64,000 bases of DNA from Octopus vulgaris (lineage: Eukaryota), in the NCBI GenBank assembly GCA_951406725.2, contig OX597825.1, positions 558,001-622,000 on the forward strand, written 5' to 3'. Shown here piece after piece: positions 32,248 to 64,000 of the stretch. The notes under the pieces are model-generated. The model had not been told where the DNA came from. It saw only the letters and a list, made by a program, of their open reading frames with translations, and did no database searches. The number at the start of each line of letters is the position of its first letter. Within the stretch, counting starts at the first letter, position 1. A program made the position numbers and the translations under genes.

Positions 32248-33170
32248 TTTGGTAAAATTGTCTCTCCACACAGAGGCACTGCCCAAACTTCTTTTTTCAA
32301 TCCAGTTTAATCTGTAAGAAAAAAACAAAAAAATTCTTAAACAGCATAAGAAACATTTTTAAACAGGAAAACACTAATTTCATGGTAGTAAAACAGCGTG
32401 ATTTTAGTATGATTGAAACACCTAATGATATCACAACTATACATCCATTGTGTGTGATAGGTGTAGGAATGGCTGTGTGGTTAATAAGCTCACCTTGCAA
32501 CCCCATGCGCCTTGGACAAGTGTTTTCTGCTATAGGCATGAACTGATCAATGCCTGAAGTGAATTTGGTTGACAGAAAAACAGTGTGAAAGTTCATCGTG
32601 CACACACACACGTACTATGAGAGTTGAATCATTGGTTACACCATGATGTTCTGGTGCACTGAGCAGCTAGCTTTCTTTATCTGCAGTAATTCATGAATAC
32701 ATAACTGTATTGTATAATGCACAGCGTGCACATCAGTGCAGACATTTATTCCACACTGAAATTATTATTACATGAAGACGGCTGCGAAATGGCTGTAACC
32801 TTAAGGATGTTGAGTGGTTAAATAACTACATCCACCTGTCATACTTCCTGACTTTTTATGGTTTATATACTCCTCATGAAATAATTTCAACAATTGTATC
32901 TTCTGGATTTCAGCTGCATGGACACTTTGCATCATTACACTTTTCTTTACGTGGATTACTATGTGGTCTGTTAGCCAAGTCCACTAAAAGATTTTGATAG
33001 CCACACAATTCTATGAATCCGGATATTACACTACAAATTTTTTAAACTCTTCCTATTAAAATAAGGACTTATTACATTGACACAAAGGCAATAAACATTT
33101 TGGAATATGATTATAGTTAACAATAGCAGTGGTTTTCAAACTATAAATGGTAACCCTGCCCTTTCCTTAA

Positions 33171-43854: not shown

Positions 43855-44799
43855 ATGCAAAACAATAGCCATGCTAAAGAAGGAAACAAGTGTCGTGTCA
43901 AGAAAACTTCTCTTTCACAGGAATTGTCTAAATACTTAGCAGCCCTTCGACCATGGTCTTTCACATCCTCTTTCACCCCAGTTGCTTTAGGCAGCGCCCT
44001 TGCCTATATGGAGCATGCCGAATTTAGCCTTCTCATATCTTTGGTCACCTGTCTCACTGCCCTCTCTGTCCATGCTGCTGGAAACCTTGTCAACACCTAC
44101 GTCGATTATGTTCGAGGAATCGACACCAAGAAAAAGAAAGATGCTAATCACAAAACATTGGTCGATTCTGTGTTGATGCCGGGTGACATTGCTTGGCTGG
44201 GAGGGTTGTCCTACGTGTTGGGATGCTGTGGATTTTTGTTGCTTGCCTATATTTCTCCTGCCCGCATGGAGCACTTGGCCCTTATTTACTTTGGAGGTTT
44301 ATCCGGAAGTTTCCTTTACACTGGTGGTCTTGGACTGAAGTACGTTGCTCTCGGAGACGTGGTAGTCTTCCTCACTTTTGGTCCCCTTACAGTCGTGTTC
44401 GCCTTTCTTTCACAAACCGGTGAACTATCGAACGAACCCATTTTTTATGCCATCCCTTTAGCTATCAGTGCTGAAGCAGTCCTTCATTGCAATAACACTC
44501 GACATATGGAAAGTGACACGGATGCTGGGATTGTTACCTTAGCCATTCTGCTGGGCCATACTGGCTCCTACATATTGTTCGTGATGCTTTTATTTCTGCC
44601 CTACATTGCCTTTGTCTACTTGGGACTGCATTATTCCAAATGGTATTTTCTACCTCTCTTAACCGTGTTTGAATCCTTTAAATTGGAGAGATATTTTCGT
44701 TACCGTCACTTGGAACAATTGCCTCGGAAAGTGGCACGGTTGAATTTTATTTTTGGACTTCTTTATGTTATAGCTTGTATATTGGCACTAAAACACTGA
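43855..44799 (+). CDS. UBIAD1: UbiA prenyltransferase domain-containing protein 1 (MK-4 synthase/heixuedian family), copy A, single-exon CDS, 314 aa
   Basis: LRPWSF, HAAGNLVNTYVDYVRGID, EHLALIYFGGLSGSFLYTGG, KYVALGD, TFGPL, AGIVTLAILLG; multiple hydrophobic helices; first ATG at 43855. Confidence 0.96.
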   Translation: MQNNSHAKEGNKCRVKKTSLSQELSKYLAALRPWSFTSSFTPVALGSALAYMEHAEFSLLISLVTCLTALSVHAAGNLVNTYVDYVRGIDTKKKKDANHKTLVDSVLMPGDIAWLGGLSYVLGCCGFLLLAYISPARMEHLALIYFGGLSGSFLYTGGLGLKYVALGDVVVFLTFGPLTVVFAFLSQTGELSNEPIFYAIPLAISAEAVLHCNNTRHMESDTDAGIVTLAILLGHTGSYILFVMLLFLPYIAFVYLGLHYSKWYFLPLLTVFESFKLERYFRYRHLEQLPRKVARLNFIFGLLYVIACILALKH

Positions 44800-47404
44800 C
44801 CAAACATTCGCAGCAAGATCCATCAAAAGGCAAAGTATTTATTATTGTTATTTTTATACTTGTTTTTATTATTGTTTTTTGTTATTGATGGAGAAACAGA
44901 TTTGGTAAAGCCTTGCAGTATTCATAGCGTGTTTTTCAGCCTTTCGCGATCGATAAAATAAAGTACCAGTCAAATACTGGGGTCGATTTTGTACTGTGCC
45001 ACTCTGCCATGTGAGGTCCTGTGGGTGAATTGTGTTGAGAAGGCGAAATCAGTAAAGCGGCCGACAAAATTCTTGCGGTATTTCATGTTCCTTTACGTCG
45101 AGGACAAATACTGACAGGGTTTCCGTTTTTGTATCAATAAAATAAACACCTGTAATTACTAGTTACGATATAATCAGGTACATCGATTATACTCTCACCA
45201 ATAGTTGAAATAATAGTTATTAGTGAGACTTTAGAGTGGTTGAAACGGAATGCTAGGTTAACAGGTTCCCTTATGTTCTGAGTTAAAATCATATTGAAGT
45301 AAGGACTTGTCACATACTAGTACCGGTTTCATCGAATAAACCTTTCTACTGTAATTTGTGGCCTTCTATCAATTATGATAGTGTAGTCGTATCCTTGTTT
45401 ATGATGTCTTCAGAATAATTAAAATGCTTCAAAATTTCAAATCAAATTACGCGACTGTTCCACCTGCTAGAAATGGTAGTCATATCACACCCTACGAAGG
45501 CTGAGGAACCATGTCTGAGTAATAGACAGGATGGTCACAACTTTTATGATTAACGATTTACCTACTCGACACAATAATTCACATCCAAGACTTTATATGT
45601 TGATTGTAGAGTACAGAATCGATTATATTGATCTCAGTATTTGACTGGTACTTTATTTTATCGATCTGACTTGTAGGACTTTTTGACCAACGATTCGTTC
45701 TCCTTCAATTAAAACTGACTCGGTGCTAAACAACAATAATGACTTCGACCGTTCGTCATGATTAGCATGAATTATCAATATTATTGGCAGAATTGTTGAA
45801 GTGTGGAAGAAATACTTTGCAGTATTTATTCCAGCTCCTTATTTCTGAGTTCAAATCTCTCTAAGGTCAAGTTTATCTTTCATTCCAAGATCGATAAAAT
45901 AAAGTATCAATCCAGTAGTAAGGATCGGTTTATTCGACTAACCATCTTCTTTCAAGATTGTTGGCCAAAATCAGAAATCAGTTTTCTTCAGGTGCTGCAC
46001 AAATTATTTAGCGCTATTTCCTCCGGCTCTTTATGTCCTGAGATCAAATACTGTCGGAGCCGACTTCGCGTTTCATCCTTTCGAGGTCGATAAGATAAGC
46101 AGCATTTGAGCACCGGGGTCGATGTGAAGATCCTAATCGACCTCGCTCACCCCTCAAAAAATTCATTTATTTTCAAGACAATATTCTCAGTTGAGATAAC
46201 TAATCTTGGTGCTTTACGTTTTCTTCTTTCTTCCTCTCATCTTCTTTAGTTCGCGATCTTTTGTTTCGTGTTCAAACAATCCTTACCACATCCATAATCT
46301 TGATACAAACTAATGTTTCAAGTTCTAGGCTGTAGTTATTGCACAAGGGCATATCTTCTTAAGAAGGTAATCGGTTATATGATTTCTCCACCCAGCTGAT
46401 ATTTTATATAACCACGAATAACACGGGGCATTACTAATTAGTTAATTATATATTTACCACGAGTTAGTTTATGACGATAGACATACACCGGAGAGATACA
46501 TATGTCAAGTTTTAATACCCCTATTTTTTTTTTGTTTTTCACAGTTGCTAATTTTGTTTTGTAAATGACATGTGCTGTTTTCTGAATTATTCTAGTGTGT
46601 TTACAAAAATGCCTCTGTAGCAGATTTTTGCCTCAACTATCGGGGACGGGAGGAAGTCTTTCTAAAATCTGAGTCCCTCTGAATCTACTGAGGCCCTTTT
46701 AAGTTTTAGGGCATCTACATTTAGTCGGGCCCTCTCTGCTATTTTATGTTCTAAGTTAGCAAAACCGTAGCCCCCCCCCCCCGGAAAATGGCCTCGATGT
46801 CCCATCAGACCTAATTCCGGCCCTACTTACGAAGATCCCTAGCAACTCTTTCCTAAGTTGTACTTCACTGTGTCGCCTGAAATGTTTTTCATCACGTTTG
46901 CTCCATAACCTGTGGCTGAAGAAAAATAACAAATAATACGGCAAGTACAGCATCATCAATGATTCTTACGCTGATTACACGAGTCTCCAAGTCAGGGGTC
47001 GGGGAACTTTTTTGGTAACCAATTACACCAAAATATATTTATTTACTCCGACTTTATCCCCCTTAATTTGAAAAGAAGAAAATCGCAGATTCTTTGAATT
47101 CAAAAGGTTTATTGAAAGAACTCGTTTTCTATGTAATTTTACTTACGTCTAATGAGTCCTCATTACCCCTAAGAATTTTATTCTTACCCCACTTCGGGTA
47201 ATTTATCCCGGTTCACCTGCCCTAAGCGGGTGCGTGATCTTTTAGAAATAGTTAGAATTTTCCCTAAAACCACAACCTGCCGTATTAAAAGAGAATGGTC
47301 ACAGTGTATAATAATGTATGTATGCATACACACTCCTGGTCTAATTTAGTCTCTTTTAATATGGTATACGCACACTTAAGCACGGTCGAATAGTTATGAA
47401 GTGT

Positions 47405-48060
47405 GCTCCATCGACTTTGTTTCGTCAAAAGTTCCAGAAAAGTACTTTTTAATAAAATTTTCTCCAACTATCTTTCATATGGTGTAGATTATGATTCTAT
47501 TGAAATTTGTTGTGAAAAAGTGTTTTCGGAGGTGGGAAGGAGTTTCGGGTAATTCCACAATGTTGGATTTGTTTCCTCGTTACTTTATGGAAAATTAATA
47601 TTTTTGTAATGAAATTGTCTACAAATAACTTTCAGATGTACAACATTACGATTACATCGAAATTTAAGAAAAAGAATTGCAAGCACCCATTCATACTAAC
47701 TCTCTTTAGAATATCTTTCGAGTTTCGATTTGTTCATAAGTAAAACGTGTCAGTGTGTGTGTGCGAGCCGACCAATTTTTTTCTTTTACACGTGAAATTC
47801 CAATATAATCATAATTTACACCATCTGAAAGGTATTTGTGGAAAATTACATTAAAAAATACCCAATGTTATAAAAGTTTTGGAGAAACAAAGCCAACTCG
47901 TGTTAGTTTTCCAAAACTCTTTACCCCACTCACGGAAAGCATTTTTTACAAACATTTCCGATATAATCAGAATCTACGTCATCTGAAAGGTATTTGTAGG
48001 AAATTTCACTAAAAAATATTCATTTTTCTGGAAGTTATGAAGAAAGAAATTCGGTGGGGG
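47405..48060. mobile_element. Foldback element with long imperfect inverted arms (shorter relative at 59783-60125)
   Basis: Two subunits (tttgtttc..tctttcagatg..gatta) on the left arm, two inverted subunits (catctgaaaggtatttgt..gaaacaaa) on the right. Confidence 0.7.
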
Positions 48061-48878
48061 ATGATACACTTGAGTGGTGGGTGTTGAAGTTGATCGAACA
48101 TCTAAATGACATCGTCGAAACCAATGGAGATTGCACCATCATCAGATGTACAAGAAGACGGCTTAATCATTCGCTCTCGATCAGGTTTACGAAGTCATAC
48201 TAAACTTAGGATTAAACGATAGCAACACGTGTCGAAAAATGTTGCAGTCCCTCTGCCAACCAATTCTGTTTTGGGCGATGTTAATATTTCATAAAACACC
48301 GTTCAGATTTTTAGAAGTTGGATGCAAAGTCCGGAAAAGGGAAAGATTTCCTTTTGTACTCTCTCTTAAACTTTTTTTTTTTTAATATTATACATGGTGG
48401 AAAATTGATTTCCTTACAATAATAATAATGATGAGAAAGTTATAAAAATAAAAAAAAAATTACTCTTAAAAAGAAACATCATTTCTGTATTATGTATATC
48501 CATGTCTCAATTTGCTTAAACGTTAACTCGATGAAATTTGCCTTACCTTATCAAGATAATAAAACAAAAATTAAAAAAAATCTGAAAATATTTTAACTGA
48601 CATGACTTGTACAAAATTTACATTTGATTGTATTACACACGTGCAAAAAACAAACAAACTGTTATTCAATTTCCTAAGCAAATTAAGACAATGAATAAAA
48701 CAATTTATTGACAATAATATGACATACAAATTGAAAACATCTTACAATAGTATTGTGGGTTTACATGTATATTCAGTATTTTTAATGTTGATGATTATGA
48801 TGAATATTTCAGTCAAATAGACAAAGAAACTCTGCCAGGTTAGGGCTATACTGGGTCATCTATACTGCTCAGCACTTT

Positions 48879-49155
48879 CATCATCATCATCGTTTAACGT
48901 CCGCCTTCTATGCTAGCATGGGTTGGACGATTTTGACTGAGGGCTGGCGAACCAGATGGCTGCACCAGGCCCCAATCTTGATCTGGCAGAGTTTCTACAG
49001 CTGGATGCCCTTCCTAACGCCAACCACTCCGAGAGTGTAGTGGGTGCTTTTTACGTGCCATCAGCATGGGGGCCAGTCAGGTGGTACTGGCAATGACCTT
49101 GCTCGAATCTTTTTACACATGCCACCAGCACAGATGCCAGTAAAGCGACGGACCA
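48879..49155 (-). mobile_element. RTE-type 3' tail copy (other copies approx. 3785-3960, 8985-9170, 12200-12380, 29185-29533, 50770-50913, 52400-52668)
   Basis: Shared (CAT)n-cgtttaacgtcc...ctggatgcccttcctaacgcc motif. Confidence 0.8.
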
Positions 49156-49204
49156 CACATAACAAGTAACTTCCTAGAAAATAAGTGAAATAAATATGTA
49201 TATA

Positions 49205-50520
49205 TTGATTAGGAAAAGAATTAAACTAGATGAGATGTAATTTGGTTTTATTCTTGGGAAGAGTACCACAGATGCCATCTTCCTAGTGAGACAGCCGCAG
49301 GAAAAGTACTTGGCCAAAAGTAAGCCATTGTACTTAGCCTTCGTCAACTTTTAACAGAGAAAGCTTTCAACAGAGTTCCCTGCTCTGTTATATGGTCATC
49401 TCTAAGAAAGTTAGGAGTAGAGGAGTGGCTTGTTAGAGCTGTACAATCCATGTACAGTGGTGGTGTGAGTAGGGTGAAAGTCGGCCATGAATACAGTGAT
49501 GAATTTAGCATACAAGTAGGGGTTCACCAGGGCTCAGTTCTCAGCCCACTCAATCATTATAGTCCTCCAGGCCAGAACAGAAGAAATCAAAACTGGATGC
49601 CCATAGGAACTGCTATATGCTGATGACCTTGCTCTTATTGCAGAATCTTTAGTAGAATTGGAGAAGAAATGCCAGGTATTGAAAGAAAACCTGGAATCAA
49701 AGGGCCTCAAAGTTAACCTAGCAAAGACGAAAGTTGTTAGCAAGAAAGAAGATAAAACTATCATTCCATCAAGTAAATGGCCCTGCTCAATATGTAGGAA
49801 AAGAGTTGGAAGAAATTCCATTCGCTGCCCCCAGTGTAAGCTATGGACACATAAGAGGTGCAGTGGATACAACAGGTAGATTAACAGATAAAGTCATCTT
49901 TGTATGTGGCAGATGTGCAGGAACAATAAGTACTAAGAGCACACAGGACTTAGACTCTCTCAAATGCCCAGGAGGCTCTCTTGAGGTTGTGGATGGTTTC
50001 TTTTATCTAGGTGACCAAATTAGCAATGGTGGAGGATGCTCTTAAAGTATTGTTTCTAGGATAAGAATAGAGTGAAGGAAGTTCAGAGAGCTATTACCTC
50101 TGTTGGCAGCAAAAGGACTCTCTCTCTCTCAGAGTGAAAGGTAGGCTGTATGATGCCTGTGTGTGAATGGCTATACTCCATGGTAGTGGGACATGGGCTC
50201 TAAATGCAGAAGACCTGCATAGACTGGAGAGAAATGAAGGCAGTATGCTCTGTTGGATGTGCAACATCAGTGTGCATGTATGACAAAAGTGCAAATGTAT
50301 TGAGAGGAAAGTTGGGCATAAGGCAAAATCAAATGTAGCATGCAAGAGAGAAGACTATGTTGGTTTGGACATGTGATGTGTATGAATGAGGACAGCTGCA
50401 TAAAGAAGTGGATGGTACCTGTGGAGGAGAGAGACTCAGGAAGACATGGATGGCGTGGTAAGGATCGATCTCAGGATGTTGGGCCTCGTGCAGGAAATGA
50501 CATTGGAGGTATGAGGTTCT
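49205..50520 (+). mobile_element. RTE LINE fragment (RT to C-terminus), stops and frameshifts
   Basis: STTDAIF, LLYADDLALIAES, GLKVNLAKTK, WPCSICRK, YLGDQIS remnants homologous to 53707-55890. Confidence 0.9.
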
Positions 50521-50999
50521 TGAGAAGATCCACCCATGTCAGTGAAACTGAATTCTAGCATAACAAGAAAACTTCTCACACACTCTACCACAACAAACCA
50601 AACTACATCTCTTCTCTTCCTCACATTTTCACTTGATGCACTATGCTTACCTCCCACTCACAAATCCTGTCTCACTGTATCATTGCTGTCCGCTAGTTCC
50701 TGATCTGTGTGTTCCACCCACACATAAGAAAACTTTTCTTACATCCTACCCCAACAAATCAATCTACGTCTCAGTGGTTGCCGTTAGGAAGGGCATCCAA
50801 GTGTAGAAACTCTGCCAAATCAAGATTTGAGCCTGGTGCAGCCATCTGGTTCGCCAGCCCTCAGTCCAACCCATGCTAGCATGGAAAGCGGACGTTAAAC
50901 GATGATGATGATGTCTCTAGACCTCTTCCTCACATTTCCTCCTTCATACTCAATGCCTAGCTCTCACTCCCCAATCCTGTCTTCGCGGCTGGGCATGGT

Positions 51000-51958
51000 T
51001 CAGAAAGCTTCTACCCCTACTGGTGACAATGGGCTTCTTGCTCAGAGTGAAAGGTAGATTGTATGATGCATGTGTGCGAACTGCCATACTTCACGGCAGT
51101 GAAACATGGACCCTGACTGCGGAGGATATGCATAGGCTTGAAAGAAATGAAGCTAGCATGATCCGATGGATGTATAATGTTAGTGTGCACAGACGACAGA
51201 GTGTAAGCACCCTGAGAGAAATGTTAGACATAAGAAGTATCAGATGTGGCATGCAAGAGAGACGTTTTTGTTGGTACGGTCATGTACTGTGGATGGATGA
51301 GTAGAGCTGTGTGAAGAAGTGCCACTCCCAAACAGTTGAAGGAATCCGGGGTAGAGGGAGACCCAGGAAGACATGGGATGAGGTGGTGAAGCATGACCTT
51401 CAAACGCTGGGCCACACAGAGGCAATGACAAAAGACTGACGCCTCTGGAGGTATGCTGTGACTGAGAAAACCCTGCAAATAAACAAATAAAGTGAGTCCA
51501 CAGCTGTAACCTACACTAGTGTCACATAACCAGCCCACTCAAAAGTACCTTGGATTGTAGGGCGACATGCTATGCTTGAGGAGACCTATTGAGTCAAGTA
51601 CATCAACATCAGCAATATAAAAATCGAATCAAATGGAAATTGTAGTTGTGAGCCCCATGCTGGTAGCACATAAAAAGCACAATCCAAATGTGGCCAATGC
51701 TTTGACTGGCTTCCATGTTGGTGGCATGTAAAAAGCACCATCTGATCATGGTCGATGCCAGCTCCTCTGGCCTCTGTGCCAGTGACATATAAAAAGTACC
51801 CACTACACTTATGGAGTGGTTGGCGTTAGGGAGGGCCTCCAGCTGTAGAAACACTGCCTGGTCAGATCAGGACCTGGTGTAGCCTCCTGGCTTCCTAGAC
51901 CCCAGTTGAACCGTCCAACCCATGCCAGCATGGAAAACAGGCGTTAAACGATGATGAT
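51000..51958 (+). mobile_element. RTE LINE 3' portion with (GAT)n tail
   Basis: RVKGRLYDACVR...WYGHV ORF remnant, same 3'UTR and tail as 53707-55890. Confidence 0.9.
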
Positions 51959-53149
51959 TGCTAACTGGTAGTAGCCCCCCACCCCCAGGTTTTCACTACT
52001 CACTTCCTTTCCACACTCTCTAATCATACTTCTTTGGCAATGTCCTTCGAACCTGAAGGGTATGCCCTGGCATTTGCCACCATTTATATTTCTCTCTGCC
52101 TTTACTTGACCATCCCATTTCTATTCTGATCCCCAACCCCTATTATCATGCCCAGCACTTTGCCACCATCTCTATCCTGCTGTCTCCCACTCTCTCTTGT
52201 TCTCATGCTCTTCCCTCAGGTTAGGTAACCATGTACCTCCTTTGCAGCTGCACACCTGTTTCTGCCTCTCTAAGTCACAATAACCTTTCATCATCTGACA
52301 AGGAGGTCACCTCCTCCAATGCCCCCTCCCCTCTCAAAAGATTTTTGTTTGCAAGTTACTTGGTGACCCTGTCAGTGCAGGTGCCTCTTGAAAAGCATCC
52401 TGTCCACACTGTAACGTGGTTGGTGTTTGGAAAGGCATCCAGCTGTATAAACCTTGCCAAAAATGACCTCACCTGTGCTCATGCCACATAGAAAGCACAA
52501 AGTCCACTCTGCTGAGCGGATGGTGTTGGGAAGGGCATCCAGCTGTAAAAATCTTGCCAAGACAGTCACAGAAGTCTGGTGCAGGCTTCTGCCTGGCTGG
52601 CTCTTGTCAAATTGTTCCACCCATGCCAGCATGGAAGGCGAACATTAAGTGATGAAGATGATGATGATGTTTATATTTCACTTAGGCATGGTGAGACCAA
52701 TAACCAAATGTAGAACTCAGTATACACATGTTTCAAAATGAAGTGTTGGCTGAGTATAGAGCAGTGATAAGAAAGAGGGATGACAAAAGAATAAATGATT
52801 ACCTTATGAACTCCATTAGCTTACGGCTGTTACTGCTATAAGATGCAGTGGACTCATAGTTGAGTGCCTGAGTAACACCTCATGGCTTTATAGGGGCCTC
52901 GGATATGAAGTACAATTTATTTGGGAAAGAGTTACATTTGTCCCTGAACAACTCAACAATGGGAAAAGTCAATACAGATGTACATAAGAAAAGTGTAAGT
53001 TCAAAATATAATTAGATGCATTAGTGAAAATATATGTGCATGCACTGTGAGGCACCTACAGATACAGAAAGACACCTACACAGATACACCTGTATACAGA
53101 GTGCAGTGAATATCTTGTCTAAATTATGCAAAAAGGAAAATAACATTGA

Positions 53150-53652
53150 CATCTCATTTTAATAGTCATATTTACCAAAATTACATAAAAATATATTGAA
53201 ATACAAAAGAGTAAATGTATTCAATAAAATCGCCATTGGCTTCAACTCCAGACGACTTTGGAATCTCCTACAACTCTTCTATCTGAAAGTTTTGGTTTTG
53301 TTCTGGAGTTTTGTTTACACAAGGAGGTTTTTCCCGCTTTCTCAAAGGCTGTCATTACTTTCGAGACAGTACTTCTTGATACACCAAACATTTCACTGCT
53401 TTTGTTGCGCTAGCACCTGCCATACGAGCACCAACAATTTTACCTCTTTGAAAGTCCGATAGATCTGTCATTTTAATGAATTTTAATTAGCTTTTTCCGA
53501 TGATATCTTAAAAGAAACAGCAATTTTAGCAAAACATATCAAGCAACACTAATAATAAATCAAAAAATATAAAAATAAACATATTTTTGATGGTTTTATA
53601 GATATTTCAAAATTATGATGCTAGGTGTTTCCATTATTTTGTGCAACCCCTG
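53150..53652 (-). mobile_element. Internally deleted Tc1-like transposon
   Basis: TIR ta|caggggttgcacaaaataatggaaacacc; from ATG 53471: MTDLSDFQRGKIVGARMAGASATK then (frameshift) EMFGVSRSTVSKVM (HTH); C-terminal EANGDFIE remnant; left boundary approximate. Confidence 0.78.
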
Positions 53653-53670
53653 TATATGTATGTGTGTGTG

Positions 53671-53706
<36 letters not shown>

Positions 53707-53709
<3 letters not shown>

Positions 53710-55890
53710 TCATCATCATTTAACATCCGTTTTCTGTGCTAGCACGGGTTGGACGGTTCGACCAGGGTCTGGGAAGCCAGGAAGCTGCACCAGGCTCCAG
53801 TCTGATCTGGCAGTGTTTCTACATCTTGTTGCCCTTCCTAATGCCAACCACTCCATGAGTGTAGTGGGTGCTTTTTACGTGCCAGTGGCACAGGTATCAT
53901 AACTACAATTTCCATTTGATATTTATTTTGATGTTGATGTACTTGACTCAATAGGTCTCCTCAAGCACGACAGGTCACCCTACGCTCCAAGGTAAGCACA
54001 GCAGGTCGTTTTGCGATCCAAGGTACATTGGATGGGCTGTGGCTATGCAAAACTGGTGCATGAAGCAGCCCTGAACTTACATTACTTGTCGGGTCTTCGC
54101 AGTCACAGCATATCTCCAGAGATCTCGGTCTTTCGTCATTGCCTCTGTGAGGCCCAAGGTTCGAAGGTCATGCTTGACTACCTCATCCCATGTCTTCCTG
54201 GGTCTACTTCTCCCCCGGATACCTTCAACTGTTTGGGAGTGACACTTCTTCACACATCTCTCCTCATCCATCTGCAGTACATGACCATACCAGCGCAAAC
54301 ATCTCTCTTGCACACCACATCTGATGCTTCTTATGTCCAGCATTTCTTTCAGGGTGCTTACACTCTGTCGTGTGTGCACACTGACATTACACAGACAGTG
54401 GATCATGTTAGCTTCATTTCTTTCAAGCCTACGCATGTCCTCTGCAGTCACAGCCCATGTTTCACTACTGTGAAGCATGGCGGGTCGCACACATGCATCA
54501 TACAATCTACCTTTCACTCTGAGCGAGAGACCTTTTGTCAACAGCAGGGGTAGGAGCTTTCTAAACTTTGCCCAGGCTATTCGTATTCTAGTGGTGACAC
54601 TCTCTGAGCATCCACCTCCACTACTAACTTGGTCACCTAGGTAGTGGAAACAATCAACTACTTCTAGTTTCTCCCCCTGGAGTGTAATGGAATGTTTTCT
54701 GAGTATCTGTGGTGTCTATTGCCTCTGTGCATCTGCCGCACATGAAAACTATCTTCTCAGTTAATTTTCCTTTGATGTTGCTGCACCTCTTACACTGGGT
54801 ATATCTTATGGAGTTTCTACCTACACCTTTTCTACAGATCGAGCAGGGCCACCTGCCCGAGGCGGTGTGTGATGAGTTCACCTTTCTGCTTACTAGAACT
54901 TTGGTCTTTGCTACATTGACTCTAAGGCCTTTTGATTCTAAACCTAGCTTCCACACCCGAAATTTCTTTTCTAGTTCCAGTAGTGATTCTGCTATGAGGT
55001 TGTCAGCATAGAGGAGCTCCCAGGGGCAACCCATTTTGAATTTCTCTGTTATTGCCTGGAGGACTATAATAAATAGAAGAGGACTAAGGGCTGAACCTTG
55101 GTGGACCCCTACTTCTACCCGGAATTCTTCACTACACTCGTTGCCAATCTTAACCTTACTAACGGCCTCTCTGTATAGGGCCTGAACAGCCCTTATTAGC
55201 CATTCGTCAATCTCCAGTTTCCGCATTGCCCACCAGATAAGGGATGAGGGGACCCTGTCAAAGGCTTTCTCCAAGTCCACAAAAGCTATGTAGAGGGGTT
55301 TATCTTTAGCTAGGTACTTCTCCTGCAGTTGTTGAACCAGGAAAATGGCATCAGTGGTGCTTCTACCAGGAACAAAACCAAACTGCATCTCATCTAAGCA
55401 GACCTTCTCCCTAATGAGATGGACTATGACCCTCTCTGTGACCTTCATCACCTGATCCAGCAGTTTAATACCCCTGTAGTTATTCCTATCTAGAGCATCA
55501 CTTTTACCCTTGTAGCAGTTGACTATGGTGCTGCTATGCCAGTCATTGGGTATGACTCCGTTATGTACTACCTGGTTTATAATGTGGGTGACTAGGCCAT
55601 AGCCCACACCACCAGATGCTTTAAGCATCTCAGCAGTGATTCCTGATGGGCCAGGGGCTTTTCCTGGCTTCATACCCTGAATTGCTTTAACTACTAGGGA
55701 GCTGTCTATTGGGATAGCTGGTCCCTCTACTGGGTCAACATTTGGAGGGCTCTCCTCCTCCCATTCATTCTCCACATTCAGCAGTCTTTCATAATGGCTT
55801 CTCCAAACCTCTTTCTTTTTGAGAATCACTAAAAGCAAGTGCACCATCATCCATTCGAACACATTTCTCTCCTGTAACATCACTTGCAAA
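53707..55890 (-). mobile_element. 5'-truncated RTE-clade LINE (RT, PHD-like finger, C-terminus, 3'UTR, (GAT)n tail), decayed
   Basis: ORFs 54654-55889 (KAPGPSGI, NYRGIKLL, QFGFVPGRSTTDAIF, FVDLEKAFDRV, GVHQGSALSPLLF, LYADN) and 54077-54541 (LRWYGHV, RPRKTW); frameshifted, YADD damaged. Confidence 0.93.
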
Positions 55891-58410
55891 CAAAAATCTT
55901 TATTCTTCAGTCTGCACTTAGGAATATATTTTCCTTTAGACCTGCTGGCTGACTATTTTCTTGGTGCCAGTCTTTTGGCCTTGACACCAGAAATATTCAC
56001 TCTTTATTATTTATGAAACTTAAGGCAGCAAGCTGGCAGAATTGTTAGCATAGCAGACACAATGCTTAGTGGCATTTTGTCTTTCTTTACGTTCTGAGTG
56101 CCTTTCATCCTCTCAAGGTTGATAAAATAAGTACCAGTTGAGTGCTGGGGTTGATGTAACTGACTTCCCCACTCCCCTAAAAAATCTCAAGCTTTATGGA
56201 GAGGATTATTTATGAAAGTTTGTGCTTCTGGAAATTCCTGAGCAGCCCAGGCATGTCTCTCAGATTCAATTGTTTTCCTGATCTGGTTTTTCATTTCCAT
56301 TCATAATTTATCAACACTAATCCAAGATTATCCTAAGGTAATCCCATATTCCACTTCAGTGTGGCCTCTACACCCACACTAGTCCAACTTCACAGTATTT
56401 TAAATAGGATTCTTAAAATTCTTTGCATATTCAACCATTTCAGCCAAATATTGCTATCTTTGTCAGTTTTGGTCTCCATTCTTTACTGATTAACAAAAGG
56501 AATTTTGTATCATTTACTTGTTTCTGTCACTGAACTTGAAGGATTTAATCAAATAAATCGATCCCAGTACTTTTTTTTTAAAATTAAAGTCTGGTACTTA
56601 TGAGTCTCTTATGCCGAAATGCTAAGCTATGGGGATGTAAACAAACCAATACTGGTTGTCAGGTGTGGTGGCGAACAAACACACATATATATATATTAAT
56701 TTCCGTCTACCAAATCCATTCACAAGCTTTTGGTTGGCCTGGGGATAGGGCTGTGGGAGTGAACCCAAAACGACATCGTTGGAAGTAAATTTGGCAGTCA
56801 AAACAGAAATTTAGAGTTATTTCCCTTGCATTTTTAAACTCAATTTTTAACTCTTGAGGTTTTGTTAACTAAATCCCTTGGGTTCAAAGTTTTTCAAATC
56901 AGTATAATACTCGAATGAGACAGACGTAGCGTTTTCCACCATAAAAGCTATATCAATTTAATTATTTAACACCATTATTTAACTTATTAACTCAATTTAA
57001 CTTATTAACTCAATTTAATTATTTAACACCATTATTTAACTTATTTGTGATATTATTACATATGGTATATATTGATTTCTGATTTCGGCATAAATCCAAC
57101 AATTCAGAGAAGAGCGATTTAGTCGATGCAATCGACTCCTTTAAATTATTGGTATTACGTTTTGTCGACTCCGAAGGGATGAAAGTCAAAGTTGGCTTCG
57201 GAGGGATCTGAACTCAGATCGTGAAGACCCGGAACAAATGCCACAAGCCATTTCCCCCCGATTCCCTAACGATTCTCCCAGTTCACTGCCTTGCACATTT
57301 TGTTAAATATCACAGATTTAAAAAAAAAATCAAATTATTACTATTTTCAGTGTGAGTTCTGCGCGTTCGTCCCATCCGTTAGAAATAACAACCAAGTTCC
57401 CTCAAATGCACCTAGCGCATCTTTGTTATATCTCGACCTTCCTGAACAGTTGCTGCTTAGAATCCAGATCTAAGAAGTCCCAGATCTGACCTTTGGTCTA
57501 CAGCATCTCAACTATGACTCGTGTTTCTAAGTTTTATGTAGACGTATATTTTTTAGTGTTTGCTCTGGTTGTGATAAGGTGCGGTTCGAGGGAGATTTGG
57601 CTGCTATTTGCAGCAATGATGTTCCATTGGCTTGTGTCGTAATATGAGCCATTTCAAAGCATGTCTGAAGCCACACAATACGAATTCCTGTTTTTCGCTT
57701 TTTTTACTTCGAGCGACGGGAGTAATTCTGGAACTGACTGGCAGATGGAAGGGAGATAACTGACATTTTTTATTTCACCTTTTAGGAGAAAGTATCCCCA
57801 AAATGTTTAGATACAAAATAATTCGACTAAGAAGTGCAAATGCCATAAGTGTTTCTTTTATTTCGTGGTTGATCCGCTATCTGCCGATGTACGTTATTTT
57901 TCTAAACATTTACATTTGTCATTTATCCGTGCGTGCACACACTTTCTCTTCCTAAAACACTTTGCTTTTAATAAAATAGATTTATGTTTGTGGATCTTTT
58001 CGGTTTAAACGGCAGTTTTTTTCTAGCGGAGTCATATGAAATTGTCACCCATAATTATGACCCTAGTATCGATCTATTGCATTTCAATCTGGTTTAGGGT
58101 TAGAGGTGGGAGAAGGGTATGTTTTTTCTTCACAAGTGTAAATAAACCCAATCTGTTTCTCAAACGAGGGACATATTCATACGGCACAGAATGTTTTCAC
58201 CTCAATAGACGTCATTGATTGGTTGAAATTGCAGAAATTGAAGAAAAACAACAACAAATATCTTACATACTATAGAATTTTCTCAATAAAGCCATGAGAA
58301 AAAGATGTGGATCTTTTCCTTTTAAACGGTAGTTTTCAAAACAATTTCTAGTTAACTAAACTCTTTTAAACTTCGTATACTGGAAGATTGTGTCAAAATA
58401 AAACATTTTT

Positions 58411-58857
58411 TGTCTTGGCTTTCTTGAGAAAATTGTAATTTGTAAGTTTAACGTAGTTTAATTTTTCGAATTTTAACCAATCGATTGCCTCATTTGAGCT
58501 AAAATAATTTGCTGCGTCTAAAACTGAGACTACATCCTGTCACTAACCCTCACCCTAACCCTAACTCTAAATTTTAGCCTTTCGGTTTTTTTTTTCTTAA
58601 TTGTTAAATTAATTTAATTGTTACGCGTGTGTCTAAAATTATTCGTTTTGTTTTTGTTTTGAGTTTTTGCTTTCGTTTTTTTTTTCTTAAATTAATTGTT
58701 AAATTAATTTAAGGATAACATAGGCGCAGGAGTGTCTGTGTGGAAAGTAGCTTGCTAACCAACCACATGGTTCCGGGTTCAGTCCCACTGCGTGGCATCT
58801 TGGGCAAGTGTCTTCTGCTATAGCCCCGGGCCGACTAATTCCCGAAAGAAGCTTGTC

Positions 58858-58894
<37 letters not shown>

Positions 58895-59416
58895 TGTGTG
58901 TGTCTGTGTTTGTCCCCCTGGCATTGCTTGACAACTGATGGTGGTATGTTTATGTCCCCGTCACTTAGCGGTTCGGCAAAAGAGACCGATAGAATAAGTA
59001 CTGGGCTTACAAACAATAAGTCCCGACTAAAGGCGATGCTCCAGCATGGCCGCAGTCAAATGACTGAAACAAGTAAAATAGTAAATAACAATTAAGAAAA
59101 AAAAGACGAAAGCAATGGAAAATAATTTTAATCTAACAATTAAGAAAACAAACGAAAGCAAAAACTCAAAACAAAAACAAAACGAATAATTTTAGACACA
59201 CGCGTAACAATTAAAATAATTCTATAATTTTACAAACACGCTTTCCGTATATTCTGTATAAATAGCTGTTTACGTAAACATAAGTGACAGGATGTCGTCT
59301 CAGTTTTAGACGGAGCAAATGATTTTAGCTCAATAGAGGCGATTCATTGGATAAAATTCGAAAAATTAAACTACGTTAAACTTACAAATTACAATTTTCT
59401 CAAGAAAGCCAAGACA
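58411..59416. repeat. Long inverted repeat flanking a central SINE
   Basis: 58411-58545 inverts 59283-59416; 58612-58690 inverts 59135-59216. Confidence 0.85.
58723..59085 (+). mobile_element. SINE family 1, young copy
   Basis: As 36089-36487; other copies approx. 25620-25980(+), 26395-26705(+), 26898-27250(-), 56510-56770(-), 59420-59595(+), 60635-60990(+), 61160-61450(+). Confidence 0.88.
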
Positions 59417-62400
59417 GGTAGGCGGAAACTGAAAGAAGCCCGTCATATATGTATGTTTGTGAGTCTGTGTTTACGTACCCGTAACTTAGCGGTTCAGCAA
59501 AAGAGACCGATAGAATAAGTCCTGGGGGCGATTTGCTCGACTAAAGGCGGTGCTCCAGCATGGCCACAGTCACATGACTAAAACAAGTAAAAGATGAAAA
59601 CAATAACACTCATTGACTCCCGAAATGAGATTCGTGAATTTATTTGGAGCGGAGACTTTCGCTGATTCTGAATTTAAGATTTTTTGTGAATATATACTAA
59701 CCTAATTTTCTGTCTACTCCTTTGGATTTAATATGTATTGTGTATCATTGGGTAGTTTATGAGGCATGCCTACACAAGTGTAACTCCATCGACTTTGTTT
59801 CCTCATTACTTTTCGAAAAATGAGTATCTTTTCAATGACATTTTCTACAGACACCTCTCAGATGATGTAGTTTATGCTTATATCGAAATTTCATGTTTAA
59901 AAAAATTTTTTAAATTGAGAGCTCGCACACATACCGCGACATATATTTTACAAAACGAAACTTAAAATCAGTATCTATGTGTGTGCGTCCACTAATTTTC
60001 TTTTCTTTTCCACATTACCAGTAAATTGCGATATAATCGCAATCTGTATATTTGTAGAATAGAAGATATTTGTAGAAACTTTCAGTAAAAAAAAAATCCA
60101 TTGAGTTATGAGGAAACAAAGTCGTGTAGTGGAGGCACACTTGTAGGTTTACCTAAGATTGATTTATCATTAATTCATAAATTGTTAGGATCTTAGTTGG
60201 GTTTTTTTTATTATCTGAACTGTAAGTGATGTTTTAAAAGAGTATTTAAAATGTTCTCTTTGTTGTTTCATTATGGTAGACGTTTAGATTCAAATTACTG
60301 AACGAAACAGAGAAGCGGGAAATTGAATTTCAAAAAATTGCCTATGAAGTAAAATGAACCAAAGAAAAACAAAGTTGGGAACCCCTAAAATTAGAGATTC
60401 ATTGAGGGTTGAATGGAGTTAGCTAAATTAGATATGCATATTGCTGTAGTAACAAAGCCCTAACCCGTTGCTTTGGGTTTAAAAGAAATCTTAAAATGAT
60501 CGAAGCTTCATTAAAGTGCTATGTAAATATTCATGTTTCTGATAAATTACTTTCTCAGTAATTTTTAATCTATTCATGATAATATTTTTAATCATTCGGG
60601 TGCTTAAAAGTAATTATTTAAAAACAAAAAGAACAGGCGTGGGTGTGTGACAAGAAGCTTGCTTCCCAAACAGGATTCTGGGTTCGGTGGCACCTTGGGC
60701 AAGTGGCTTCTGTTAAAGCTTCGGGCTGACTAAAGCCTTCTGAGTGGGTTTAGTAGACGGAAACTGAAAGAAGCCCATCGTATATGTGTGTGTGTCTGTG
60801 TTGCCCCTCTCCCTTTCTTGACAACCAGTGCTGGTATGTTTGCGTCCTCGTAACCTAGCGGTTCGGCAAAAGAGACTGAAAGAATAAGTTCCAGCCTTTA
60901 AATAAAATAAAGTATTGGGGTCGATTCGTTCGACTAAAATTCTTCATAGCGGTGCTCCAGCATGGCCGTAGTCTAATGACTGAAACAGGGTAAAATGCAA
61001 TTATATTATAATTATAAATTTAGTCTGTAAAAAAAAACCCATTTTAAATACGTAAACTTAATTTGTCTGCATAAAGCGTGGTTTGGTATGATTTTCAGGT
61101 TTTATAACGAACATTCTCGGTCTACAACAGAAGAAGCTGTACATATATTATTAATATTGAAAGCTTGTTTCCCACATCTGTAGTTTTGGGTTCGGTCTCA
61201 TTGCGCGGCACCTGGGGCAAATGTCTTCTACTTTAACCTCGGACCAACCAATGTTTGTGAATGGAGTTGGTCGTGTTTGTGGCCGCTTGGCGACTGGAGT
61301 TGGTTTGTTTACTCCCCCGTACCTTATTCGGATAAAGATCGTTAGAATAAGAACCAGGCTTCAAGAAGAAGAAAAAACGAAAAAGTACTGGGGTCGATTT
61401 ATTCGACTAAACCTTTCAAAATTGCCCCAGCATGGCCGAGGTTCAATGACTGAAACAAGTAAAAGATAAAAGAGTCCAATGGAGAATTGATTTTAGGTTG
61501 GAAAATCTTTTATTTTCCTTTTTAATTTTATTTTGTGTGTGTATATACATACATATACATACATACATACATATATATTTCTTAGTTGTAGCGCACCTGA
61601 GCGCTGCATGCAACACTTTCTTTCATATCTTATTCTCTCTTTGATAGTATTTTTCTTTTACAACATTTAGTTTCATTGACGCTGATTTTTTTAATGTTGA
61701 ATTATAATAAAGCTGCTAATAACATGCAATAAATTGTATCCAAAACTGCCTTTTCTTGTGTGTGTAGCCGGGATGGGAGAAAATGCAGGAAATAAAGTTA
61801 AGAAACACTTGCCTTGAAGGTTTGTATGTGTTTTAGAAAGTCCTAAGCACTTTTAGCATCTTTTCGGGGGAATTTTGGATTTTCTTTTTCTTTTTTGTGT
61901 CAATGTGCAATGAAGCATTACAAAATATTAAACCTAAACTCACTTTTTTGTGACGGTTTTAGCTCTTTTTGTGTTTAAAGCGGACAATATTTTAAGGTGT
62001 GTTTTATATGGTTAATGTCTGTGATTTGTTTGATAAGTTGTTAGCTATGAATCTGGAAAAACTGACTTCTTCGTGATATAGGCTGGAATATTTGTTTTAG
62101 TCATCGACATTAAAAATATTGAATATGCTTGTCATGCCACAACACAATGCGAGGTGTTTTCAGTTTTCCTTGCTAAAATAGTGACCTTTTTTTCTGGACA
62201 CTTAACGATTATCGGACGAAGTAGTTGTGTTTTTTTTCTTTTTCTCTTAACTACTGTTCATTTTTGTTTTGCATTTAGTCAACATAAAGGTAGGCTTCTC
62301 TGATATGATTCCATCTGTCCTTTCATTGTATATAAGAAGCGTGTTTGTATCCTGCATGTTCCTTGTAACGTCCCCTCTATGCAAACCTTTTTATAGGTAA

Positions 62401-62448
62401 ATAAAGAAACATTCTCTGATATGATTTCGGTTCCCTAAGTTGAATTGT

Positions 62449-63324
62449 TTAAATATTTGAGAAAAGAAGCGTGAAACAGTAGAGCAAACCTTGTACTAAA
62501 TTAAGTTTGGCTAGTGTCTCAGGAAGTCCGATCATGTCAAATTCCTGTATGCGTTTGTAAAGCGGAACCAGAGTAAATGCAGTTAATGCCGGCAAAACAA
62601 AGAGCAGGTTACGTGTGAAAGCGATTATGAGTAGAAAAAATATGTAAGATGAAAAGAGCAGCCCTATCATCAGCTGGCGAGAAATGTGCTTTCCAAGTAG
62701 CATGGGTAGAGTGCGAATTGCTGCTTTCCTGTCAGCTGCTTCGTCTCTCATGTTGTTAGCGTGGAGTATGGCGACCGCATTGGTGGCCAGGGGCAGCACG
62801 AGGACTGCTGCCCTTCCGGACAAGAAACCGCTGCAGCTGAGGTAAGAAAACTCTGTTACTAAAGGCCCAAAAGTTAAGAAGATCAGGAAATCGCCCAGTG
62901 CCCTGTATTTGAGGGCTATCCAACTGGTGTAGATCAAACTGCTAACAACTCCCAGACTGTACAGAACAATCAAGGACAGATGTGAAGCCGGGGAATGGAC
63001 AACGGTGAAAGTGAGTGAAAAGAGAGAGCCGATGTAGCAAACGGCTAGCAATGATAACAGCTGGTCTTTGGTCAGTTTGGCATCGGTCAGGGTCGGGTCG
63101 TGTGTAGAATCTTTCTGATCGACACCATTTATGAAATCGCAGAAGGTGTTGTTCAGGTTACCAGCAGCGTGAATTAAAAGTACAGTGAATAATGTGTTAC
63201 AAATAAGGCACATGCTCGGATTGTGGTCGGGGTTAGTTAGGATTATCCCAACAATACTAGGGACGATAGATGCCGAAAAAGACCAAGGTCGGGCTGACAG
63301 CAACAGCTCTTTCAAAATCGCCAT
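62449..63324 (-). CDS. UBIAD1: UBIAD1-like prenyltransferase, divergent copy B, single-exon CDS, 291 aa
   Basis: ARPWSF, HAAGNLNNTFCDFINGVD, KYRALGD, TFGPL, AILHANNMRDEAAD, LAKLNL; uninterrupted ORF, ATG context aattATGg. Confidence 0.92.
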   Translation of the reverse strand: MAILKELLLSARPWSFSASIVPSIVGIILTNPDHNPSMCLICNTLFTVLLIHAAGNLNNTFCDFINGVDQKDSTHDPTLTDAKLTKDQLLSLLAVCYIGSLFSLTFTVVHSPASHLSLIVLYSLGVVSSLIYTSWIALKYRALGDFLIFLTFGPLVTEFSYLSCSGFLSGRAAVLVLPLATNAVAILHANNMRDEAADRKAAIRTLPMLLGKHISRQLMIGLLFSSYIFFLLIIAFTRNLLFVLPALTAFTLVPLYKRIQEFDMIGLPETLAKLNLVQGLLYCFTLLFSNI

Positions 63325-64000
63325 AATTCTCAGAATGGAAATGCTTTAGTAGTTCTCGCGCTTGAATTACAGTAACGTGTGTGGTTTTGTTAATAAAGTA
63401 TTCGTATATAATTCTCTGTCAAGGCCTTTTTTGAAATGTCTACTTATAAAAAAGTTGTTTTCGTTTTCGCAGCGACAATAATGTACCAAAGTGTAGTCTT
63501 TTCTAGTTTAGTTTATCTTTTTTAAAAACCAAACACTGCATGTCAGATAGATGCTGCCGGTTTTTAGATAGGCGAAATGGTGGTATTAAGCAATTATAAA
63601 AGAAGCTTTGGCAGGAAGAAATGCAGGGTTTATAAATAGTAGATCAGGAAAACGTAAATTCTTAAGAAAACTGTTCACCCTTGAAGTTTAGTCCTTTTTT
63701 TTCTCTGCTAAATAAAATCCAGTTTGTGTCTGTTAATTTGATTGGCCTTATTTAAAGAAAAAAATCACTTGTGACTTAATATAACTCTTTCAGACATTCA
63801 GATTTGTGAATATATCAAATCTACATGCGCAAGTCAATCCACCCGCCCCCCTCTCTCTCTCTCTCTCTCTCTCTCCAAACACACATGTTTCAGTGGAATG
63901 TGAAGTCTTACAGTTTCTTTATGGAAGCGTTGATAACAAGTTTGTTGCATATGGCTTCTTTAATCATGAAATAAATCAGAAAACGAGCCAACAAAGGCGC

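Follow-up and report, generated by a model that had tools for sequence, protein, structure and literature searches.

Work on UBIAD1 has treated it as a single protein in which two jobs are entangled, vitamin K2 synthesis and GGPP sensing for control of HMG-CoA reductase (HMGCR), the statin target, and in vertebrates one UBIAD1 protein does both. Whereas vertebrate UBIAD1 is a single gene, the window analysed here (the whole stretch of 64,000 nucleotides from Octopus vulgaris) carries two, with fixed complementary changes. The copies lie 17.6 kb apart, and mTOR, on the minus strand beside UBIAD1-A, is transcribed away from it:

32017..32250, minus strand: coding exon of the mTOR N-terminal region, given for context (E 7e-16, human mTOR residues 23-91)
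43855..44799, plus strand: UBIAD1-A, 314 aa, intronless single ORF; the conserved copy, adjoining mTOR
63324..62449, minus strand: UBIAD1-B, 291 aa, intronless single ORF; fast-evolving, with the N-terminal extension almost absent

Both copies have the UbiA domain (Pfam scores of 104 bits for A and 96 bits for B, cut-off 34.2) and the nine-helix fold, and the nearest solved structure of both is hamster UBIAD1, 8DJK_B, which places them in UBIAD1 within the UbiA superfamily. This structure was the best match in sequence (E 3e-95 for A, 4e-40 for B) as well as in fold for the AlphaFold models of A (pLDDT 92.5, TM-score 0.79) and B (pLDDT 96.5, TM-score 0.81). The closest NCBIfam models for both were MenA models, every one under its cut-off. 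A genome search returned A and B as the only UBIAD1-type matches in O. vulgaris, with no further copy found in the whole genome or in the 40 kb beyond the window; from their translations we read the other UbiA matches as COX10-like and COQ2-like exons, except one that is a simple-repeat artefact. A seeming splice after position 44830 in A was also rejected, as a skipped simple repeat explains it, and uncovered flanks and contig ends around 63660-63720 were given no weight.

The copies differ at the position of human Asp236, in the second Mg-binding motif. ORF translation agrees with the sequence-only reading of this motif in both:

44503..44505, plus strand: A His217 at the Asp236 position (CAT, motif NNTRHMESD)
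62743..62745, minus strand: B Asp194, equivalent to Asp236 and retained (GAC, motif NNMRDEAAD)

The A clade comprises Octopus, Argonauta and a sister group of sequences, in all 12 proteins, 10 of which were aligned. To exclude a sequencing error or a private allele, as the earlier reading had advised, the CAT codon was checked in reads and relatives. Contigs spanning the codon showed no difference in four of four runs from four studies, and His is shared by 12/12 A-clade proteins and by none of 132 other animal UBIAD1s; both explanations were rejected. RNA editing that restores Asp was likewise ruled out, since by the genetic code A-to-I editing at CAT yields Arg. Of 526 collected proteins the position could be read in 469: it is Asp in 437, Asn in 20, and His in the 12 A-clade members and nowhere else. 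The 20 natural D236N proteins fall in two separate places in the tree. The D236xxxD240 motif is thus broken by His in 10/10 aligned A sequences and present in 12/12 B sequences.

How much this substitution costs depends on the enzyme consulted. Bacterial MenA and archaeal AfUbiA have a two-motif active site, as do the octopus copies, and in the available part of PMC4106721 the equivalent change abolished activity of E. coli MenA and weakened GPP binding 45-fold in AfUbiA. The same text places the second Mg 3.5-4.0 A from the diphosphate and describes its ligands as the least important for binding. Human UBIAD1, unlike E. coli MenA, did not require the residue in one study, where D236A gave normal or raised MK-4 synthesis and K109A, too, was no less active (PMC4398444, available part). 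The label "catalytic Asp" given to this residue by the sequence-only reading is therefore too strong. Among essential residues only D236, dispensable in human and required in MenA, is lost in A; N102, D106, D112, Y174, K181, Y182, N232, N233 and D240 are retained.

The inventory of changes made from sequence alone had caught D236H in A and had overlooked the replacement of A's DDR loop, as well as the loss of R119 and of the HMGCR face in B. We defined 62 strict columns, each at least 98% conserved in the 132 other animal UBIAD1s; relatives of A were the best 120 of 995 matches, non-octopod B orthologs were found by profile searches (a single-sequence B search missed them), and sequence counts leave out P0006, which has an internal duplication. 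The columns lost in all 10 aligned A sequences are D117, R119 and D236 only, all of them in the lid over GGPP. The lid loop L2-3 differs between the copies:

44122..44166, plus strand: A loop L2-3 (lid), a longer polybasic loop in place of the DDR motif, net charge +3, with Lys at R119
63094..63101, minus strand: B loop L2-3, D118 retained, R119 replaced by Pro, net acidic

This combined loss occurs in 0/132 other UBIAD1s, 112 of which have lost no strict column at all. The D117-D118-R119 sequence is intact in neither copy, D118 surviving in B. Position 119 is Arg in 131/132 others, Lys in all A (a conservative change) and Pro, Ser or Ile in all B, and the loop carries +3 in 10/10 A, 0 to -4 in 12 B and 0 or -1 in 123/132 others. 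Judged by its residues, A has lost one second-Mg-site ligand and gained basic charge. The lid, or cap, is where Schnyder corneal dystrophy alleles cluster (PMC9314443). In B, 10 strict columns are changed and 41 are intact in all 12 sequences, including every metal ligand (92 of 276 columns are invariant). B retains N102, D106, D112, D118, Y174, K181, Y182, N232, N233, D236 and D240; the first motif (N102, D106, D112) together with Y174, K181 and Y182 is complete in 10/10 A and 12/12 B, and P309 is intact in both copies. V122 is lost along with R119 in 12/12 B, and the octopod sequences carry G177W.

The second difference between the copies concerns TM4, part of the face that binds HMGCR:

44263..44313, plus strand: A TM4, HMGCR-binding face retained (R156, E158, F172; hamster numbering)
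62920..62987, minus strand: B TM4 region, HMGCR face changed (156 Ser, 158 Leu, 172 Leu; G177W)

A retains all of the interface residues V101, K/R156, E158 and F172, its Arg at 156 being found also in 31/132 other UBIAD1s. Octopod B has lost all four; among non-octopod B, V101 is kept in 7/7 and R156 and E158 in 6/7. F172, whose change to Ala weakens HMGCR binding (PMC9314443), is Phe in 132/132 others and 10/10 A and in 0/12 B. TM4 identity to hamster is 19-20/23 in A, 7-11/23 in B and 18-19/23 in single-copy molluscs; since the face of A is no better kept than theirs, we take it as retention, not specialisation. The partner is present too: octopus HMGCR keeps 7/7 named interface residues, of which V181, S185, V267 and S271 were read by alignment to 8DJK_A and N250, V252 and V256, where direct search matched nothing, were counted back across a GT-AG junction. 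INSIG occurs in the same genome, as do a carboxylase-like HTTM gene and polyprenyl synthases. Four family searches of the genome detected no gene of the squalene-to-sterol branch, by a method that also missed HMGCR's sterol-sensing exons; the apparent absence is a weak hint.

As far as the alignments reach, these are two intact, linked UBIAD1 genes whose complementary changes are fixed across octopods and the sister group. At a probability of roughly 0.45, A would chiefly regulate HMGCR by binding it, its GGPP handling re-tuned, and B would be a prenyltransferase that no longer engages HMGCR. With its core ligands and HMGCR face intact and its lid altered by the loop replacement and D236H, A may handle GGPP weakly or differently; a poorly closing lid would keep it on HMGCR in the ER, as with the Schnyder alleles, and could protect the supply of non-sterol isoprenoids in a carnivore whose sterols may be dietary. 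B, for its part, would provide prenylated quinone, probably with altered kinetics or acceptor. The background agrees in two respects, as HMGCR was stabilised by each of the 21 Schnyder mutants examined (PMC6668851) and, in the available part of PMC7069719, the essential UBIAD1 job in mice is HMGCR protection, not MK-4. A regulator/enzyme split had been proposed from the sequence; it is supported in part, gaining from the lid-only strict losses in A, the lost HMGCR face in B and the kept face on HMGCR itself. Against a clean split, human R119G lowers activity (PMC4398444, available part) and R119 is gone in 12/12 B, so that B is not an intact enzyme.

The division of labour need not involve a catalytically dead A. 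The sharper version is that A, the ancestral gene, has become a pseudoenzyme fixed in a Schnyder-like state, protecting HMGCR at all times from destruction triggered by sterols, since cephalopods would obtain sterols by feeding and not by synthesis, and that quinone prenylation has moved to the second copy. This is rather unlikely: human D236A is fully active in one study, D236N is found naturally in other lineages, and as an MK-4 synthase B is itself not intact. Those human data, with the minor role of the second-Mg ligands in binding, instead allow A to be a working MK-4 synthase and HMGCR partner in which His and the basic loop replace the second Mg, B having been neofunctionalised towards a different product through its acceptor or chain length. 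We regard this as a reasonable but tentative possibility. The copy beside mTOR, A, evolves slowly (258/276 core identities to Argonauta A, versus 189/274 for the B counterpart), and the 10 changed strict columns of B would suit a new enzyme; yet E. coli MenA needs the equivalent Asp, the three losses of A are grouped in the lid in a combination found in none of the 132 others, and the D236A evidence comes from one study that had no loop change alongside.

If instead both copies were MK-4 synthases that drifted under a shared load and now diverge chiefly in where they act (tissue or compartment) or in their GGPP threshold, the intact first-motif ligands, Y174, K181, Y182 and P309 would be expected, as would the loss of R119 in different ways in each copy; extra or divergent UBIAD1-like records in Liolophura (two, among the matches listed) and Limulus are also compatible. 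This is improbable, however, because the losses cluster by function, in the lid for A and in the HMGCR face and TM3-TM4 for B, and are fixed per clade. Opposite loop charges and neighbouring genes could also suggest one A-B complex in which the basic loop of A complements the acidic loop of B, but charge and neighbourhood are weak grounds and a solved UBIAD1 protomer has its own active site (PMC9314443), which makes such a complex very improbable. A prediction of the complex scored 0.00 and was weighed neither for nor against it.

Both clades share the split between octopods and the sister group. B as sister of A was absent from free trees, and this arrangement, that of a tandem duplicate with an ancient paralog as the alternative, was not rejected (p-AU 0.204 with 31 rows, 0.085 with 36). 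T225A, present in 22/22 A and B sequences and 3/132 others, was given no weight as a link between the copies, as other sequences in the control had no fewer B-like rare states.

Vertebrate UBIAD1 (PDB 8DJK/8DJM), which makes MK-4 and partners HMGCR as a GGPP sensor, shares its fold and core ligands with both copies and its HMGCR face with A. Of the human Schnyder positions (D118, R119, D236, G177), A is altered at R119, D236 and the D117-D118 loop, and B at R119 and V122 and, in octopods, at G177; Schnyder alleles are patient variants, whereas the octopus states are wild-type, clade-fixed and other residues (His and Lys in A). Rhomboid and iRhom form an enzyme/pseudoenzyme paralog pair, which the octopus copies resemble in pairing a conserved, possibly weakened copy, kept for a presumed regulatory contact, with a paralog predicted to be active. 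They differ in that A keeps most catalytic residues, making it at most a partial pseudoenzyme, and in that B is itself altered.

With disease-like fixed changes in one copy and a lost reductase face in the other, the pair provides separation-of-function proteins without any engineering. Whether the HMGCR control loop exists outside vertebrates could be tested with it as well; we found no paper showing HMGCR binding by an invertebrate UBIAD1 and none on cephalopod UBIAD1, in a search with most subscription journals outside it. A pseudoenzyme A with a prenylating B would be a natural separation of both UBIAD1 functions, and a fully active A would show a UbiA enzyme working without one second-metal-site ligand. 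A smaller likeness concerns the locus: as A lies beside mTOR, so MTOR and UBIAD1 are named together in the legend of a vertebrate synteny figure (PMC5237311, available part).

The window holds two convergent UBIAD1 genes, a conserved copy adjoining mTOR (UBIAD1-A, hereafter A) and a fast-evolving copy (UBIAD1-B, hereafter B), which lie 17.6 kb apart and encode proteins with 37% identity.

Features of the UBIAD1 locus
1300-32350, minus strand: further mTOR exons, read from ORFs
32017-32250, minus strand: exon of the 5' part of mTOR, tested by sequence match
43855-44799, plus strand: UBIAD1-A, 314 aa, single open frame
54654-55952, minus strand: reverse transcriptase fragment, RVT_1 match
63324-62449, minus strand: UBIAD1-B, 291 aa, single open frame

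No UBIAD1-type genes beyond A and B were found in a genome-wide search, and the predicted structures of both (pLDDT 92.5 for A, 96.5 for B) had hamster UBIAD1 as their top fold match. A falls into a cluster with entries from O. vulgaris and O. bimaculoides; for B, one O. sinensis record is nearly identical. LINE-type reverse transcriptase fragments occupy 49500-56000 between the genes. A cluster of plus-strand A>G differences 3' of A (47486-48041), seen in contigs of runs X1, X2 and X5, resembles A-to-I editing and could also represent alleles.

As the sequence-only reading had claimed, at the position of human Asp236 in the second Asp-rich motif A encodes His217 (CAT, 44503-44505) and B encodes Asp (GAC, 62745-62743). 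The His codon withstood the checks proposed for it in reads and in other cephalopods: the A frame is spanned by contigs from all four runs, from four studies, none of which differs at this codon, and His is common to 12 of 12 A-clade proteins, which fall into four clusters at 90% identity, one each for Octopus and Argonauta and a pair making up the sister group. Contigs of the same four runs cover B. One X11 contig (depth 5.5) carries an extra A within an A-run at 62634, which would shift the B frame and may be a sequencing error, and in X5 a G>A change at 62613 turns a B Arg into Cys, the residue of the O. sinensis record.

For comparison we used 132 other animal UBIAD1s, comprising 115 A matches (from the best 120 of 995), four B-search matches and 13 named arthropod or vertebrate records, with protein P0006 excluded; 62 columns whose conservation in this set is 98% or more are termed strict. 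Among the matches listed, the D236 column holds Asp in 130 and Asn in two, and 112 of the 132 lose no strict column. Every A protein loses three of the 62 (D117, R119 and D236; the D117 loss depends on the alignment of a longer loop), and a polybasic loop of net charge +3 replaces the DDR motif, at which 123 of the 132 are 0 or -1 among the matches listed. The residues lost in A are part of the cap, which closes on the prenyl diphosphate and in which human Schnyder disease alleles cluster (PMC9314443, section 8). A retains all four residues named at the HMGCR interface, V101, K156 (as Arg), E158 and F172 (PMC9314443, section 7).

Every B protein loses ten strict columns (D117, R119, V122, G142, A161, F165, S169, F172, G179 and Q206), and B retains 41, including N102, D106, D112, D118, Y174, K181, Y182, N232, N233, D236 and D240. 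F172 is gone in 12 of 12 B proteins, and all four interface residues are gone in the five octopod ones. A and B both retain P309, a residue tied to Golgi export (bioRxiv 10.1101/2023.03.02.530834, discussion).

Profile searches recovered B orthologs, all with a short N-terminus, from Argonauta and four further clusters (at least 388 bits, against 273 for the next match). The B proteins divide into octopods and a sister group, the same split as in A; judging from the trees, the sister-group proteins are likely from squid or cuttlefish. For Argonauta, the accessions of A and B are consecutive and their contigs equal in size, and the O. bimaculoides A and B contigs are likewise equal. The A/B feature is real and fixed clade-wide. 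Core positions matching the Argonauta ortholog number 258/276 for A and 189/274 for B, and B is the faster-evolving copy by this sequence measure. A literature search on UBIAD1 and cephalopods, with most subscription journals outside its coverage, did not find the feature.

The A+B grouping was absent from every free tree. In a 36-row tree, whose bootstrap had not fully settled, B joined one divergent protein (93/93) and a lophotrochozoan clade containing A (99/98) excluded B; the A+B grouping was not rejected (p-AU 0.204 and 0.085). Linkage speaks for B as a tandem duplicate on a long branch, and it may instead be an old paralog. Seven divergent animal-like UBIAD1s (P0257, P0258, P0260, P0263, P0270, P0253 and P0470), several of which have a short N-terminus, lie outside the canonical clades and may represent a second UBIAD1 lineage in animals.

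The octopus genome contains HMGCR and INSIG. Its HMGCR membrane exons retain V181, S185, V267 and S271 (aligned to 8DJK_A, the HMGCR chain of the hamster UBIAD1 structure, with the numbering offset worked out by hand) and N250, V252 and V256 (counted across a GT-AG junction). The sequences show two intact genes with fixed complementary substitutions, and the partner face of HMGCR is conserved. The genome also has a carboxylase-like gene and polyprenyl synthases. Family searches of the genome found no squalene synthase, squalene epoxidase or either oxidosqualene cyclase domain, a method that also failed to detect HMGCR's own sterol-sensing exons, so these results only hint at sterol auxotrophy; a review terms the evidence on molluscan cholesterol synthesis sparse (PMC12965858).

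The sequence-only reading had suggested that the jobs of UBIAD1 may be split between a pseudoenzyme or regulator (A) and an enzyme (B), or that A may have changed its use of metal or substrate. The complementary changes are indeed fixed, but the His is not enough by itself to make a pseudoenzyme of A, since human D236A is active and D236N occurs naturally, in two clusters grouping with annelid records (P0030, P0035) and one protein grouping with arthropod records (P0261). Nor is B a plain intact enzyme, since it has itself lost R119. In those Asn-bearing proteins the DDR loop is intact or nearly so. Published evidence on the loss of D236 is divided: the corresponding substitution left E. coli MenA inactive and made AfUbiA bind GPP 45-fold less tightly (PMC4106721), and in human UBIAD1 D236A gives normal or higher synthesis of MK-4, the vitamin K2 product, and R119G reduced synthesis (PMC4398444). 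The D236A experiment argues that D236 is dispensable and speaks for the main rival, a somewhat less likely one, in which A would go on synthesising MK-4 behind a basic lid and B would make a new product.

We tentatively prefer, at a probability of about 0.45, that A is mainly an HMGCR-binding regulator whose lid is weakened or re-tuned, and that B would be a prenyltransferase released from HMGCR. In mammals the essential role of UBIAD1 is shielding HMGCR (PMC7069719), and 21 of 21 Schnyder mutants stabilise HMGCR (PMC6668851, section 8). Shared drift, with A and B differing in tissues or compartments, seems unlikely. An A-B complex is very improbable. In its predicted function the pair bears on a medically studied control loop.

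A stops directly after its last helix (44770-44799) and lacks the C-terminal Leu-Pro tail, which is present in 95 of the 132 others (drawn from the best 120 of 995 A matches plus additions) and is also missing from octopod B.
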